A DNA stretch of 23,022 nt from a virus (lineage: Duplodnaviria; Heunggongvirae; Uroviricota; Caudoviricetes), in IMG/VR virus record IMGVR_UViG_2671180821_000008, positions 1 to 23,022 of that record; one strand, 5' to 3'. The position numbers and the translations under genes were made by a program. This document shows positions 13,280 through 22,566 of the stretch, one piece after another. Numbering within the stretch: position 1 is the first letter of the stretch; each line of letters begins with the position of its first letter. The notes under the pieces are model-generated. The model saw nothing but the letters and a program-made list of their open reading frames with translations, made no database searches and was not told the origin of the DNA.

Positions 13280-13583
13280 GGTTCAGCAGATTTGGCGCAA
13301 CTGGCAGATTGTGGTTCGAGTTCGTAGTCGCTCTGAACTTGCGTTTCTGCTTACAGCGTAGCCTTAGCTCCTTACGAAGACGTGCCAGTCGGTCACGACC
13401 AACGATGATGCCATTCTCTGCCAGCTCCGTCTGGAGCCGCCGGGTTCCATATGTTTCGCGAGTGCGGATATGTGCCACCTTAATCTCCAGTTTTAGCCGC
13501 TCATCACTTTGTTTTCTGTCTGAGGGTTCATGCTGTACCCAGTTGTAATAACCGCTCCTGGATACACCAAATACCTGACACAT
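13280..13583 (-). pseudogene. insK: IS600 OrfB, N-terminal 101 codons only
   Basis: Matches OrfB MCQVFGVSRSGYYNWVQHEPSDRK...NLPVAPNLLN, then diverges into IS911 sequence. Confidence 0.85.
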
Positions 13584-13618
13584 CGCTTCAATGGGAAATT
13601 GTTGTCGCCATTGTTCGA

Positions 13619-13921
13619 TTAACGCGTATTTTTCAGCGACTCCTGTGCAAAATACGCTGTTGCTTTTTTTAATATATCTCGCTCAAGGCGAGCTTCATTT
13701 AACGCCTTACGCAGTTGCAGAATTTCAGATTCCAGTTCAGCCACCGTGCGGGAACCAGGAGTACCGAGCCCTTTTCTGGCGGCGGTAACCCATTGTCCTA
13801 AAGTGCCTTCAGGAAGAGATAATCGGGAAGCGCCTTCACTGATCGAAAGTTGATTTTCAAGAACCGTTCTGACAGCTTCGGCTTTGAACTCTTTAGAGTA
13901 ACGTTGGGTTTTTCTGCTCAT
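13619..13921 (-). CDS. insJ: IS600 OrfA
   Basis: 100-aa MSRKTQRYSKEFKAEAVRTVLENQLSISEGASRLSLPEGTLGQWV..., identical to OrfA of the copy at 16555-16857. Confidence 0.85.
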   Translation of the reverse strand: MSRKTQRYSKEFKAEAVRTVLENQLSISEGASRLSLPEGTLGQWVTAARKGLGTPGSRTVAELESEILQLRKALNEARLERDILKKATAYFAQESLKNTR

Positions 13922-13997
13922 TATTAGCTCCTTCTGATGCCATTCTATTTCAGGAAGGAGTGTCCGTTAAACTCAGGCTACCTCAGTCTCGTTCATT

Positions 13998-14153
13998 TTA
14001 CTCACCTGAATGTCTTCCCAACCAACGACGTGCGCCAGCTTCGGTTTTAAACGTTTTGCTTTTGGTATACGTCATGGCGGTGAATGTGCCGTCCTGGTTG
14101 GGGAACACGCCGTACACCAGAGATTCGTTGTTGCCAAGATCGATAGTATTCAT
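13998..14153 (-). CDS. YdfA-like small protein (first gene of the dicB-type operon downstream of dicA)
   Basis: 51-aa ORF MNTIDLGNNESLVYGVFPNQDGTFTAMTYTKSKTFKTEAGARRWLGRHSGE, co-oriented and downstream of the dicA-like gene as in Qin; name recalled from memory. Confidence 0.5.
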   Translation of the reverse strand: MNTIDLGNNESLVYGVFPNQDGTFTAMTYTKSKTFKTEAGARRWLGRHSGE

Positions 14154-14229
14154 GTTGACCCCATTTCCCCTTAACGCCGGGGTAGCGGAACTGTTTGCTG
14201 AGAACACCGTGCGGTGTCTTGATGAATGA

Positions 14230-14300
14230 AATTTAGAATAACCTAAGGTGGGCGGTCAAGATTTTTGTGTAGAAAAACCTAAGTTTTTTTGATGTAAAAA
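14230..14300 (-). promoter_or_regulatory. operator-like repeats (CCTAAG half-sites) upstream of the ydfA-like gene
   Basis: ACCTAAGG at 14241-14248 and ACCTAAG at 14277-14283 share the half-site seen in the dicA/dicC intergenic region. Confidence 0.3.
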
Positions 14301-14356
14301 ACACAAGTGTTTGAAAGTTTGTGCTTTTTATTACAGGGTGTGGAGAAAAAAGGGGA

Positions 14357-14764
14357 TTATTTGTTTGCGCTTCTTTTGCGAGCTTTGAGTAGTTCTTCAA
14401 AAAGTTTGTTGAAATTTTCAACTCGAGCACGCATCTCTGACAACAGGGCCTTTTGCTCTGACTCAGGCAGTGCGTCGAACAGTTGAAGTAACTCTTTTTG
14501 ATCTTCTGTCAGAATGGCTGGCTGATTATCCGGGATCGGTTCGCCTGGTTGTTTATCTTCATCCCCAAAAAGAAGCCAAGTCGGTGAGCACTGAAGCGCT
14601 TGGCTCAGTGCGAATAATCTTTTCCCCGCCGGCTGTGTTTCATCTCTTTCCCATTGAGAAATTGTTACGTGAGCCACTTTGACCAGCTTACCTAATGCGG
14701 CCTGAGACAGTTTTAATTTTTTACGCCTATGTAAGAGGCGAGCACCGAAGGTTTCGTTTTTCAT
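14357..14764 (-). CDS. dicA: DicA-like HTH repressor (XRE/Cro-C1 family)
   Basis: 135 aa; ...LSQAALGKLVKVAHVTISQWERDETQPAGKRLFALSQALQCSPTWLLFGDEDKQP...EMRARVENFNKLFEELLKARKR closely matches Qin DicA as recalled. Confidence 0.85.
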   Translation of the reverse strand: MKNETFGARLLHRRKKLKLSQAALGKLVKVAHVTISQWERDETQPAGKRLFALSQALQCSPTWLLFGDEDKQPGEPIPDNQPAILTEDQKELLQLFDALPESEQKALLSEMRARVENFNKLFEELLKARKRSANK

Positions 14765-14840
14765 ATTAGGGAATTCTAATTTTTCTTGACTTAGGTTTCT
14801 CTACGATCTAGTTTCCTTAGGAAAATCTAAGGAGCTCGAT
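14765..14840. promoter_or_regulatory. divergent dicA/dicC promoter-operator region
   Basis: 76-bp intergenic region with inverted repeat CCTTAG-N6-CTAAGG (14815-14832, overlapping the dicC SD), TTAGGGAATTCTAA (14766-14779) and TTGACTTAGG (14786-14795). Confidence 0.5.
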
Positions 14841-20559: not shown

Positions 20560-20587
20560 TTGATTCGCGCACCTTCGCAGATAGAAT
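20560..20587 (+). promoter_or_regulatory. candidate sigma70 promoter (TTGATT, 16-bp spacer, TAGAAT)
   Basis: Near-consensus hexamers at 20560-20565 and 20582-20587, upstream of a 14-codon uORF and the 95-aa ORF. Confidence 0.4.
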
Positions 20588-20668
20588 CGACTCACTTAAG
20601 TAGCGCGCAGGGAGAAGAGGGATGGACCCCGAACAGGGGAGAGCTATTTATCTGGAAGGATTCTGAAG

Positions 20669-20956
20669 ATGAAAATCGAAGAATTGCGTGAAATTTTTAG
20701 TGAAAATGGCCTCTATGCTGTGCGCGTTGAGAATGGAGCGATTGTCAGCCATTGCCGCATTAGATGTTTGCAATCTCAACAAAGGAAGAGCGGTGCTGTG
20801 TTATTTTATTTTTGTAATGGACTTCTGACGGACGGTTTTATTTTGCGTGAGGACGAATTTGTCACATCATTACGGGTTTTGAAAGAGATTGGTTTTAAGG
20901 CTGGTTTTCTGCTTTTGCTGAAGAATAAACTCATCTACAATCTTGAGCAGGATTGA
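20669..20956 (+). CDS. hypothetical protein (position corresponds to rem of Qin-like prophages)
   Basis: 95-aa ORF with GGAAGGA SD; preceded by uORF 20622-20666 (MDPEQGRAIYLEGF) ending 2 nt before its ATG; no recognisable motif. Confidence 0.4.
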   Translation: MKIEELREIFSENGLYAVRVENGAIVSHCRIRCLQSQQRKSGAVLFYFCNGLLTDGFILREDEFVTSLRVLKEIGFKAGFLLLLKNKLIYNLEQD

Positions 20957-20994
20957 ACTCCTGCTGTGTAACACCGTGCCACCGGAGAAAGCCG

Positions 20995-21301
20995 ATGGCA
21001 CATATACAACTGGTCAAACAAACCTCTTCCGGATTACTTCTCCCGGCGACGCCGGAGAGTTGCGATTTTCTGCATCAAATCAAAATAGGTGAGTGGATAC
21101 ACGCAGACTTTAAGCGTGTGTGTAACTACGCATTCCACAAGCGTTTTTTCAAACTCCTGCAACTGGGTTTCGATTACTGGACTCCGGTCGGTGGGGCGAT
21201 CACGCCTCGCGAACGAAAACTGGTGTCCGGTTTCGTTGATTACCTGTGTGAATCAGTAGGCCGGGAACATACGCCAGCTCTGAGCGAAGCCGCAGAGCAA
21301 T
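20995..21301 (+). pseudogene. hypothetical nin-region protein, 3' end truncated by IS600
   Basis: GGAGAAAG SD before ATG 20995; MAHIQLVKQTSSGLLLPATPESCDFLHQIKIGEWIHADFKRVCNYAFHKRFF...; reading frame runs straight into the IS600 end at 21302. Confidence 0.45.
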
Positions 21302-21344
21302 TGAGGTGTACTGGCAATAGCGGACACTACCATTTGTTCTTTTT

Positions 21345-22163
21345 TTAAGCAGCCATCTGATGATATTTTTCCCTGAAGGCTGCCGGGGAGATATTCCCCA
21401 GACGAGAGTGACGACGCTGACGATTGTAGAAAATCTCAATGTATTCCCGTATTACTGAGATGGCTTCATCCCGGTTATTAAAACGATAGTGGCTCAGGCT
21501 CTCATTTTTCAGCGTTCCCCAGAAGCTTTCCATCGGAGCGTTGTCGTAACAGTTACCTTTACGCGACATTGATGTTTTCAGACCAGACTGCTCCTGTATG
21601 ACCCGGTAATCGTATGCGCAGTACTGTGAACCTCGATCAGAGTGGTGGATTAGCCCGGCAGGTGGGCGCTGGCTCCTGAGCGCCATAAACAGGGCTTTAC
21701 CTGTCAGCTCTTTTGTCATGCGCTCTCCCATGGCGTAGCCGACAATTTCGCACGTATAAACATCTTTGATGCCAGCGAGGTACAACCATCCCTCCTGTGT
21801 GGCAACATACGTCAGGTCCGCCACCCAGACCTGATTTGGTGCTGTAGGAGCGAACGTCTGGTTCAGCAGATTTGGCGCAACTGGCAGATTGTGGTTCGAG
21901 TTCGTAGTCGCTCTGAACTTGCGTTTCTGCTTACAGCGTAGCCTTAGCTCCTTACGAAGACGTGCCAGTCGGTCACGACCAACGATGATGCCATTCTCTG
22001 CCAGCTCCGTCTGGAGCCGCCGGGTTCCATATGTTTCGCGAGTGCGGATATGTGCCACCTTAATCTCCAGTTTTAGCCGCTCATCACTTTGTTTTCTGTC
22101 TGAGGGTTCATGCTGTACCCAGTTGTAATAACCGCTCCTGGATACACCAAATACCTGACACAT
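21345..22163 (-). CDS. insK: IS600 OrfB (DDE transposase domain)
   Basis: 272-aa ORF identical in translation to the 15701-16519 copy. Confidence 0.88.
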   Translation of the reverse strand: MCQVFGVSRSGYYNWVQHEPSDRKQSDERLKLEIKVAHIRTRETYGTRRLQTELAENGIIVGRDRLARLRKELRLRCKQKRKFRATTNSNHNLPVAPNLLNQTFAPTAPNQVWVADLTYVATQEGWLYLAGIKDVYTCEIVGYAMGERMTKELTGKALFMALRSQRPPAGLIHHSDRGSQYCAYDYRVIQEQSGLKTSMSRKGNCYDNAPMESFWGTLKNESLSHYRFNNRDEAISVIREYIEIFYNRQRRHSRLGNISPAAFREKYHQMAA

Positions 22164-22198
22164 CGCTTCAATGGGAAATTGTTGTCGCCATTGTTCGA

Positions 22199-22501
22199 TT
22201 AACGCGTATTTTTCAGCGACTCCTGTGCAAAATACGCTGTTGCTTTTTTTAATATATCTCGCTCAAGGCGAGCTTCATTTAACGCCTTACGCAGTTGCAG
22301 AATTTCAGATTCCAGTTCAGCCACCGTGCGGGAACCAGGAGTACCGAGCCCTTTTCTGGCGGCGGTAACCCATTGTCCTAAAGTGCCTTCAGGAAGAGAT
22401 AATCGGGAAGCGCCTTCACTGATCGAAAGTTGATTTTCAGGAACCGTTCTGACAGCTTCGGCTTTGAACTCTTTAGAGTAACGTTGGGTTTTTCTGCTCA
22501 T
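22199..22501 (-). CDS. insJ: IS600 OrfA (L20P variant)
   Basis: 100-aa ORF MSRKTQRYSKEFKAEAVRTVPENQLS... Confidence 0.88.
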   Translation of the reverse strand: MSRKTQRYSKEFKAEAVRTVPENQLSISEGASRLSLPEGTLGQWVTAARKGLGTPGSRTVAELESEILQLRKALNEARLERDILKKATAYFAQESLKNTR

Positions 22502-22566
22502 TATTAGCTCCTTCTGATGCCATTCTATTTCAGGAAGGAGTGTCCGTTAAACTCAGGCTACCTCAG

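Follow-up and report, generated by a model that had tools for sequence, protein, structure and literature searches.

The window, by which we mean the whole stretch of 23,022 nucleotides analysed here, carries late genes, an early block and an integrase fragment of a lambdoid prophage, together with seven copies or fragments of insertion sequences in 23 kb (Table 1). The late region is cut off at its left end by an IS1, and the early block is interrupted by an IS600 in a ydaU-like replication gene, whose 5' end forms the tail of the first part (up to 15657). The DicA and DicC subfamily models of NCBIfam were matched over their full length. The integrase fragment, as called, is an ORF of 160 aa that starts at 22540, inside an IS600, and modC lies outside the window, past this fragment. 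Scans of the whole window returned only sok with Rfam and no tRNA.

Table 1 Features of the prophage remnant and of the insertion sequences in the window.
Feature	Position	Strand	Evidence, flanks or remarks
IS1	1-753		left end of late region
Late region: head genes, portal, large and small terminase, Rz-like lysis gene, lysozyme, holin 3' part	754-8503	-	
DedA-like gene	inside late region 754-8503	+	
IS2 in holin gene	8504-9834	+	5-bp duplication CTTAC
ISEc20 (IS110 family), between holin gene and tRNA-region remnant	10043-11492	+	NCBIfam transpos_IS110
Q-holin intergenic remnant	11493-12030		
IS911, left rearrangement joint	12031-13279	+	flanks CAA/GGT, no duplication
Truncated IS600, nt 1-706 from IRL (706 bp)	13280-13985	-	IRL abuts ydfB-like remnant
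Inverted early block, part 1	13986-15657	+	forward alignment to L001, L004, L008
DUF1391/ydfA-like	13998-14153	-	NCBIfam/Pfam
DicA-like repressor	14357-14764	-	NCBIfam/Pfam
DicC/Cro-like	14841-15068	+	NCBIfam/Pfam
ydaT-like, frameshifted	15052-15473	+	NCBIfam/Pfam
Middle full IS600, in ydaU-like replication gene	15658-16921	-	GGT/GGT duplication
Inverted early block, part 2, starting with ydaU-like 3' part	16922-21301	+	
YdaV/DnaC-like	17605-18351	+	NCBIfam/Pfam
DUF977	18366-18788	+	
Hypothetical	18846-19202	+	
QueH	19371-20036	+	
sok/hok	20094-20419	+	Rfam (sok)
Rem	20669-20956	+	
DUF1367 fragment, cut off at 21301	20995-21301	+	
Right full IS600, right rearrangement joint	21302-22565	-	flanks AAT/GTT, no duplication
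Integrase 3' (C-terminal) fragment	22566-23022	+	Pfam Phage_integrase; reverse alignment to L001, L004 int

Self-BLAST resolved the IS600 content into two full copies and a truncated one, all in the same orientation, as the sequence-only reading had held, with orfA and orfB on the minus strand and IRL at the high-coordinate end. By length (1264 bp), terminal inverted repeats (TGAGGT...ACCTCA), coding content (orfA, 100 aa; orfB, 272 aa) and identity (99.4-99.8% to elements annotated 'IS3-like element IS600 family transposase'), both full copies are IS600 elements of the IS3 family. The middle copy is a simple insertion with no part in the inversion, since a duplication flanks it; its junctions were not found by 30-mer comparison in Shigella sonnei 53G or in any collinear locus. 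The right copy has exactly the unpaired flanks that had been reported for it and therefore marks a rearrangement joint; a simple insertion would have left a 3-bp duplication. In 53G the IS600 in int is bordered by a clean AAC/AAC duplication, of which the window keeps only the half on the IRL side (GTT being the reverse complement of AAC). The copies differ by at most two SNPs, so that hybrid copies are not recognisable; the sole private SNP, at nt 126, is uninformative, and SNP patterns were dropped as a marker of such hybrids.

When the window was aligned to collinear relatives, 13983-21301 ran forward and both 754-12032 and 22566-23021 ran in reverse, confirming that 13280-21301 is inverted with respect to both its neighbours, the late genes to the left and the 3' fragment of the integrase to the right, as had been proposed from strand orientation. 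The late region aligned in reverse to all three references (L001, L004 and L008) with 99.7-99.9% identity. The prophage free of IS elements (L004) and that of E. coli (L001) at the same site have the order int-xis...rha-ydfA-dicA/dicC-ydaT...DUF1367-ybcO-Q-holin-lysis-terminase. Both L004 and the prophage of S. sonnei 53G (L008/L025; the accession is that of 53G, PMC5447701) occupy the same mod/ybhA site with 99.4-100% identity to the window. For 53G, which is collinear, the figure is 99.8-100% for each segment, and 17230-21301 is 100% identical. The canonical lambdoid order (repressor/cro, replication, nin-type, Q-like, lysis, integrase) thus holds in L004 and 53G; in the window it is broken, and the Q-like gene, xis and the 5' part of int are missing. 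Neither of the two findings that the sequence-only reading had named as counter-evidence was made: the uninterrupted prophage does not have the gene order of the window, and the junctions recur in many complete assemblies of independent origin. The opposite strands of early and late genes could, by themselves, suggest the native gene order of this phage type or a programmed invertible switch; we attach next to no weight to either, given the canonical order of the uninterrupted prophage and the collinearity of 53G. A switch of the Gin/Cin/Hin type is further opposed by the lack of inverted repeats in the window and of an invertase among the early-block ORFs screened against NCBIfam and Pfam, and the truncated genes and lost DNA that accompany the inversion make it irreversible.

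Only two joints are new, each lying exactly at an IS terminus. At 21301/21302 the IRR end of IS600 is joined to DUF1367 after ...GAGCAAT, where the intact gene goes on with ATCTG; at 13279/13280 the end of IS911 is joined to nt 706 of IS600. The opposite side of each element keeps an ancestral junction, IRL of the right IS600 with the int 3' fragment and the left end of IS911 with the Q-holin intergenic remnant. The IS911 (1249 bp, with IS3-family transposase matches) has the termini TGAAGTGG..., which we take to be those of IS911, and its flanks lack a duplication, as expected of a joint. The reading that placed IS600 copies at the two junctions of the block is refined in that the left one is an IS911/IS600 joint in which no IS600 exchange is involved. 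A microhomology of 6 bp at this left joint, suggested by BLAST alignments starting at 13274, was rejected: bases 13274-13279 are the IS911 terminus, the extension of the truncated IS600 over them is spurious, and base-by-base comparison gave only 4/6 matches, too few for a true microhomology.

These comparisons establish the inversion and the four breakpoints, set ancestral junctions apart from new ones, delimit the missing DNA and give the polarity of the change. The 30-mers across IRL/int-C', IS600-IRL/ydfB, F/IS911 and the IS2 insertion are identical in 53G, with their relative orientation flipped, and 53G has an intact DUF1367 and an IRR/int-N' junction. The F/IS911 30-mer is common to the window, 53G and L005; that across IS911/IS600 occurs only in inverted-type loci, and the DUF1367/IS600-IRR junction only in inverted-type S. 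sonnei (0/5426 E. coli genomes). The IRL/ydfB 30-mer of the truncated IS600 likewise recurs unchanged in 53G, L005 and L029, with an orientation there opposite to that of IRL/int-C'. The truncated copy is thus older than the rearrangement, a passenger within the flipped block and no recombination partner, and the present co-orientation of the copies results from its having travelled inside the inverted segment. The IS2 insertion also predates the inversion, since it is present in 53G and collinear strains. The ISEc20, 100% identical to the annotated element, was not found in 53G.

The same layout was found in more than 15 independent complete genomes, including those of 75/02, FORC_011 and FDAARGOS_90 and two hybrid ONT assemblies (PMC12795559). 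Three near-identical IS600 copies within 9 kb could invite a mis-join across these 1.26-kb repeats, a danger that the sequence-only reading had pointed out, and two short-read draft contigs (L015 and L019) do carry inconsistent joins at this IS600, with the DUF1367/IS600 junction joined to a different prophage. These two joins are probably repeat-collapse chimeras. An assembly artefact in the window is nevertheless a negligible prospect, because the identical junctions recur in the independently assembled complete chromosomes, among them long-read hybrid assemblies in which read mapping had served to check the structural variants (PMC12795559), and the junction ORF is present on 531 contigs. 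Orientation is fixed by lineage, together with the loss of DNA. The strain taken as lineage 1 has an intact int of 373 aa, and pre-inversion relatives (53G, L005, L029 and L026) have an IS600 at the identical site in int of a collinear prophage, giving a polarity series from intact int in lineage 1 through the collinear prophage with IS600 in int in lineage 2 to the inverted lineage-3-type form. Two local variants of the IS elements were also seen: in L006, L014 and L022 the IS600 IRR terminus is joined directly to the interior of IS911, and the 53G prophage contains a tandem IS600-IS600 (L008 4470-5734, followed by 5735-6902).

The inverted form goes back to an ancestor like 53G, because 53G already carries, in collinear order, the int IS600 with its AAC duplication, an IS600 beside ydfB, the IS911 and the IS2. 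We consider it probable, at roughly 0.85, that the window represents a defective lambdoid prophage inserted at mod/ybhA in S. sonnei, in a lineage-3-type arrangement that arose from such an ancestor by one IS-mediated inversion and one IS-anchored deletion, which is the simplest history. The sequence-only reading was right that a single exchange between the visible IS600 copies does not suffice; of the further events or prophage fusion that it called for, the former are needed and the latter is not. Similar ydaV and DUF1367 modules do occur in several related lambdoid remnants of S. sonnei (L015, L019 and L002), from which late genes and early block of two different prophages might have been fused by IS-mediated chromosomal rearrangement. 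That origin is most improbable, as a single collinear prophage, located at the same mod/ybhA site, matches every segment with 99.4-100% identity, the conspecific 53G has the same IS2, IS911 and IS600 landmarks, and the chromosomal flank and late genes are unchanged in order and orientation with respect to each other, the middle block alone being flipped.

In the history by inversion and deletion, the ancestor would have been a collinear prophage with an IS600 in int, an IS600 by ydfB (inverted relative to the int copy), an IS911 between the Q-like and holin genes and an IS2 in the holin gene; inversion would have flipped the early block, and deletion would have removed the reciprocal products (int 5' to ydfB, DUF1367 3' to the Q-like gene and the rest of the ydfB IS600). 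Two orders of events are equally parsimonious. In one, DUF1367 would receive an extra IS600 in the orientation opposite to that of the int copy, homologous recombination of the two would invert the segment from int-5' through DUF1367-5', and an IS911-anchored deletion would follow, either through a second IS911 in the ydfB IS600 and recombination or as an IS911-adjacent deletion. In the other, an IS911-mediated inversion of the segment from IS600 nt 1-706 through Q would come first, and a deletion anchored at IS600 would then reach from the int copy to DUF1367. Recombination between the ydfB and DUF1367 copies was rejected, since it would put IRL at both ends of the block and the DUF1367 end abuts IRR. 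No intermediate (IS600 in DUF1367 of a collinear prophage, or inversion without deletion) was seen among the ~30 loci sampled, and the postulated IS600 in DUF1367 was found in no collinear genome (~30 loci; 0/5426 E. coli genomes for the junction); we therefore infer the order of events and the extra IS copies, as we do homologous recombination rather than transposase chemistry.

As in a classical inversion between inverted IS copies, the int IS600 has lost the partner of its duplication, AAC remaining on the IRL side alone, and at IRR it now borders DNA from 13 kb away, inverted. Unlike in that case, neither the reciprocal IS copy nor its flanks remain, and the visible IS600 copies are co-oriented, the truncated one being a passenger. 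Of the two hybrid copies to be expected, the window has a single one (21302-22565, with unpaired flanks); two inverted copies with exchanged duplication halves were not found around the block, whose other boundary is IS911/IS600, and this model stands only with a subsequent deletion.

IS3-family elements transpose by a copy-out-paste-in route. Both new joints might also have formed by direct strand transfer of IS termini, in a single, transposase-driven step requiring neither extra copies nor homologous recombination, with an IRR end entering DUF1367 and an IS911 end entering IS600, for example from active junctions of tandem elements. The exact position of both joints at IS termini, the tandem IS600-IS600 of 53G and the variant with the IRR terminus on the interior of IS911 are compatible with such an origin, which we nonetheless regard as unlikely in view of the transposition route of this family and because a concerted event cannot involve the action of two different transposases. 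Insertion followed by homologous recombination gives the same end structure, so that the sequence does not tell it from strand transfer, and recombination between copies of an IS is the cause to which most Shigella rearrangements have been ascribed (PMC12795559).

The locus lacks about 8.7 kb of phage DNA (from the int 5' part to ydfB and from the DUF1367 3' part to Q), and with it the 5' part of int and the genes xis, gam, rha and ydfB, as well as the DUF1367 3' part, ybcO and the Q-like gene; the rest of the ydfB IS600 is also missing from the window. The disappearance of the reciprocal products is consistent with deletion. For the absence of this DNA elsewhere in lineage-3-type genomes we relied on contig counts: 711 contigs carry the int-C' junction protein and 531 that of DUF1367', against only ~170 in total for int-N' fragments, complementary counts as expected if inverted genomes lack int-N', and outright loss thus seems likelier than relocation. 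The locus is without a complete int, xis or Q-like gene, and its replication gene is split. PR-type transcription from the early block is now directed at int' and modC, no longer at the late genes, and the prophage is dead, a remnant in which a DicA/DicC-type switch, hok/sok and QueH survive.

Rac, Qin/Kim and DLP12 are defective lambdoid prophages of E. coli K-12 that have DicA/DicC-type immunity, the replication genes ydaT-ydaU-ydaV, hokD and nin-type genes. The remnant resembles them in its DicA/DicC immunity, ydaT/ydaV, DUF977, hok/sok, DUF1367/YbcO/DUF1133 and ancestral order, and also in being decayed and non-inducible; it differs from them in its mod/ybhA site, its myovirus-type late genes and its far heavier IS load. 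Lineage-conserved, IS-flanked inversions and deletions are known from S. sonnei and have been read as IS-mediated recombination in genome decay (PMC12795559, Table 4). The present case shares with these variants the species, the IS3-family elements and the lineage-conserved inversions and deletions. Its ~8-kb prophage-internal inversion and deletion are, however, absent from that list of variants >7 kb, and one of its joints lies between different elements (IS911 and IS600) rather than two copies of one.

That the inversion and deletion were not neutral decay and instead a selected, lineage-3-defining event, or that the joints reflect direct IS3-family transposase-mediated rearrangement, is in our estimation distinctly unlikely. 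If selected, the loss of the 5' part of int, of xis and of Q would keep a potentially lethal prophage locked for good, and with the DicA/DicC-controlled early operon turned to modC, the molybdate transport operon might be subject to antisense or read-through transcription. The two new joints (13279/13280 and 21301/21302) are testable by PCR and, among the genomes sampled, tell modern strains of the lineage-3 type apart from those of lineage 2, such as the old laboratory strain 53G. The rearrangement provides a structural marker and counsels caution with prophage predictors and short-read assemblers; our understanding of such systems is otherwise unchanged. It is ordinary IS-driven scrambling within Shigella genome decay, and a clean, fully reconstructable case of IS expansion dismantling a prophage of S. 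sonnei.

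Alignment to related prophages demonstrated by direct comparison, beyond mere expectation, that the early block of the window is truly inverted. The IS-free relative L004, carrying the same prophage, and the E. coli copy L001 (FDAARGOS_943) both adjoin ybhA/modC and share the order int, xis ... rha, ydfA, dicA, then dicC, ydaT, ydaU, ydaV ... DUF1367, ybcO, Q-like gene, holin, lysis and terminase; the early-right genes run in the same direction as the late ones. Window positions 13983-21301 align forward to these loci, whereas 754-12032 and 22566-23021, with the late genes and the integrase fragment, align in reverse (99.4-99.9% identity). 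This bears out the sequence-only reading, which had proposed an inverted early block bounded by IS600 at 13280-22565. Neither a native gene order nor a programmed switch can account for the layout, since the uninterrupted relative L004 has the canonical order and not that of the window, self-comparison revealed no inverted repeats in the window, and gene truncations accompany the inversion. Two segments of L004 have no counterpart in the window, namely 714-7637 (int 5' part to ydfB) and 13698-15465 (DUF1367 3' part, ybcO, Q-like gene and downstream). To the right of the window (L003, L009 and others; locus coordinates ~15420-15720), the int stop codon lies ~300 bp from modC in S. sonnei, versus an 819-bp ybhA gene in the same interval of L001 and L004, so that S. 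sonnei appears to have lost most of ybhA.

Features of the window, from self-comparison and alignment to annotated relatives
Feature	Positions	Strand	Remarks
IS1	1-753
Prophage late genes (head, portal, terminase, lysis, lysozyme)	754-8503	minus
IS2	8504-9834		inside holin gene; duplication CTTAC
ISEc20	10043-11492		IS110-family element
Q-holin intergenic region	11493-12030		remnant
IS911	12031-13279
Truncated IS600	13280-13985		first 706 nt only
Early genes	13986-21301		split by full IS600
Full IS600	15658-16921		within early genes; GGT duplication
Second full IS600	21302-22565
Tyrosine integrase gene, 3' part	22566-23022	plus

The gene identities were upheld by NCBIfam (end-to-end matches to the DicA and DicC subfamily models), Pfam (DUF1391, YdaT, DUF977, QueH, Hok, Rem, DUF1367) and Rfam (sok), and a DnaC/YdaV-type loader is present in the early block; the observation and coordinates of the earlier reading are therefore correct in every detail that could be tested, including the unpaired AAT/GTT flanks of the right-hand IS600. 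ISEc20, of a family described in NCBIfam as RNA-guided transposases, was inserted at a C-run (…CCCGCCCC before and CCCCCCGAC after the element) and is found neither in S. sonnei 53G nor in the collinear relatives. The large terminase gene is interrupted by IS2 in FDAARGOS_943 (L001 26596/27927) and intact at that point in the window (5553-5558), whose own IS2 lies in the holin gene; IS2 entered this prophage independently in the two hosts.

The window matches Shigella sonnei chromosomes, among them CP022457 (99.987% identical over 7605-23022). The inverted layout is shared by 75/02 (CP019689, lineage IIIc), FORC_011 (CP010829, IIIc), FDAARGOS_90 (CP014099) and two hybrid long-read assemblies taken to be those of genotypes 3.7.29.1.4 and 3.7.30.1, whereas 53G (HE616528, genotype 2.8), CP032523, CP044191 and UGZB01000001 have the collinear order (strain identities from PMC5447701 and PMC12795559). 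Mis-assembly across the repeats is excluded, the layout being found in more than 15 independent complete chromosomes and in read-validated hybrid assemblies, and its junction ORF on 531 contigs. In two S. sonnei short-read drafts (L015, L019), the DUF1367-IS600 junction runs into a Rac-like prophage (DUF1376, ydaV, DUF1627); both contigs are probably chimeras produced by collapse across IS600 or homologous ydaV modules.

Identical 30-mers in 53G and the window span the junctions of IS600 IRL with the int 3' fragment, of IS600 IRL with ydfB and of the Q-holin remnant with IS911, as well as the IS2 insertion; in 53G the first and third of these junctions are flipped relative to the second. The int IS600 of 53G has a clean AAC/AAC duplication, and that of the window retains the IRL half only (GTT, plus strand). 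A full-length integrase of 373 aa, from the cluster of S. sonnei integrase sequences, is encoded on a 4,916,714-bp chromosome, taken as the matching lineage-1 strain of PMC12795559. The locus therefore forms a three-step series, with int intact in lineage 1, interrupted by IS600 in a collinear prophage in lineage 2, and an inverted and deleted prophage in the lineage-3-type; inversion is the derived condition. The ydaT-like gene (15052-15473) has a frameshift that leaves two ORFs, 58 and 101 aa long, in place of 140 aa, a defect older than the inversion because 53G shares it.

Relative to 53G, the window has four breakpoints but only two new joints. One lies between DUF1367, which breaks off after ...GAGCAAT (the intact gene reads on ATCTG), and the IRR terminus of the int IS600; the other links the IS911 terminus (13279 side) to nt 706 of the IS600 formerly beside ydfB. 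Between them, 13280-21301 is inverted, and the segments on either side are missing; the truncated IS600 therefore did not serve as a partner in the recombination. In the ancestor it lay inverted relative to the int IS600, and it is now co-oriented because it was carried along inside the flipped block, which resolves the puzzle, raised earlier, of three IS600 copies all reading right to left. Recombination between the ydfB IS600 and a hypothetical DUF1367 IS600 was rejected, as it predicts IRL at both block ends whereas the DUF1367 end adjoins IRR. Position 7 of the IS911 terminus is TGAAGTGG in the window (13273) and inverted-type strains and TGAAGTAG in the collinear genomes covering this end (53G, at L008 15098, L005 and L026); the end could derive from another IS911 copy, or the difference could be a lineage SNP.

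Most likely, one IS-mediated inversion and one IS-anchored deletion, in either order, account for the structure. An extra IS600 would have entered DUF1367 and recombined with the int copy, inverting the block, and the DNA between IS911 and an internal point of the ydfB IS600 would then have been deleted; alternatively, an IS911-based inversion would have come first, with the stretch between the int IS600 and DUF1367 deleted afterwards. Both orders give an identical final sequence. Comparison of the IS600 copies left hybrids unrecognizable, as the copies are too similar, and no intermediate genome was found among the loci sampled or the E. coli genomes searched. Joints made directly by transposase action, giving the same structure, are unlikely. 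The earlier interpretation was thus essentially right: further events were needed, in the form of a deletion besides the inversion, but the proposed fusion of two prophages is unnecessary, since all segments match a single collinear prophage located at this site and 17230-21301 is 100% identical to 53G. Junction proteins of the int 3' fragment and of truncated DUF1367 occur on 711 and 531 contigs, respectively, and all int 5' fragments together on only ~170, a complementary split; these counts indirectly support true loss of the missing DNA.

Decay at the locus is ongoing, as shown by a further derived variant of some lineage-3-type strains (L006, L014, L022), in which the IS911 interior (window 13142) and the IRR end of the middle IS600 (15658) directly abut. 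The deletion (13143-15657) takes the truncated IS600, the ydfA-, dicA- and dicC-like genes and ydaT, and hence the immunity region. In 53G (L008 4470-7625), a full IS600 is followed head-to-tail by a second without its first 97 nt, forming a tandem-IS structure; next come 433 bp of rha and a ydfB IS600 reduced to 291 nt, a lineage-2-specific truncation unlike the 706-nt remnant of the window.

Lineage-conserved IS-driven inversions and deletions are well documented in S. sonnei (PMC12795559); the variants >7 kb listed there do not include this prophage-internal event, which is nevertheless of the same kind. The prophage is functionally dead: int is split, the locus lacks xis and the Q-like gene, a replication gene is interrupted by IS600, ydaT is frameshifted, and the early operon is directed at the int fragment and modC, not at the late genes. 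It keeps a DicA/DicC-type switch, hok/sok and QueH, and its rearrangement is ordinary genome decay.
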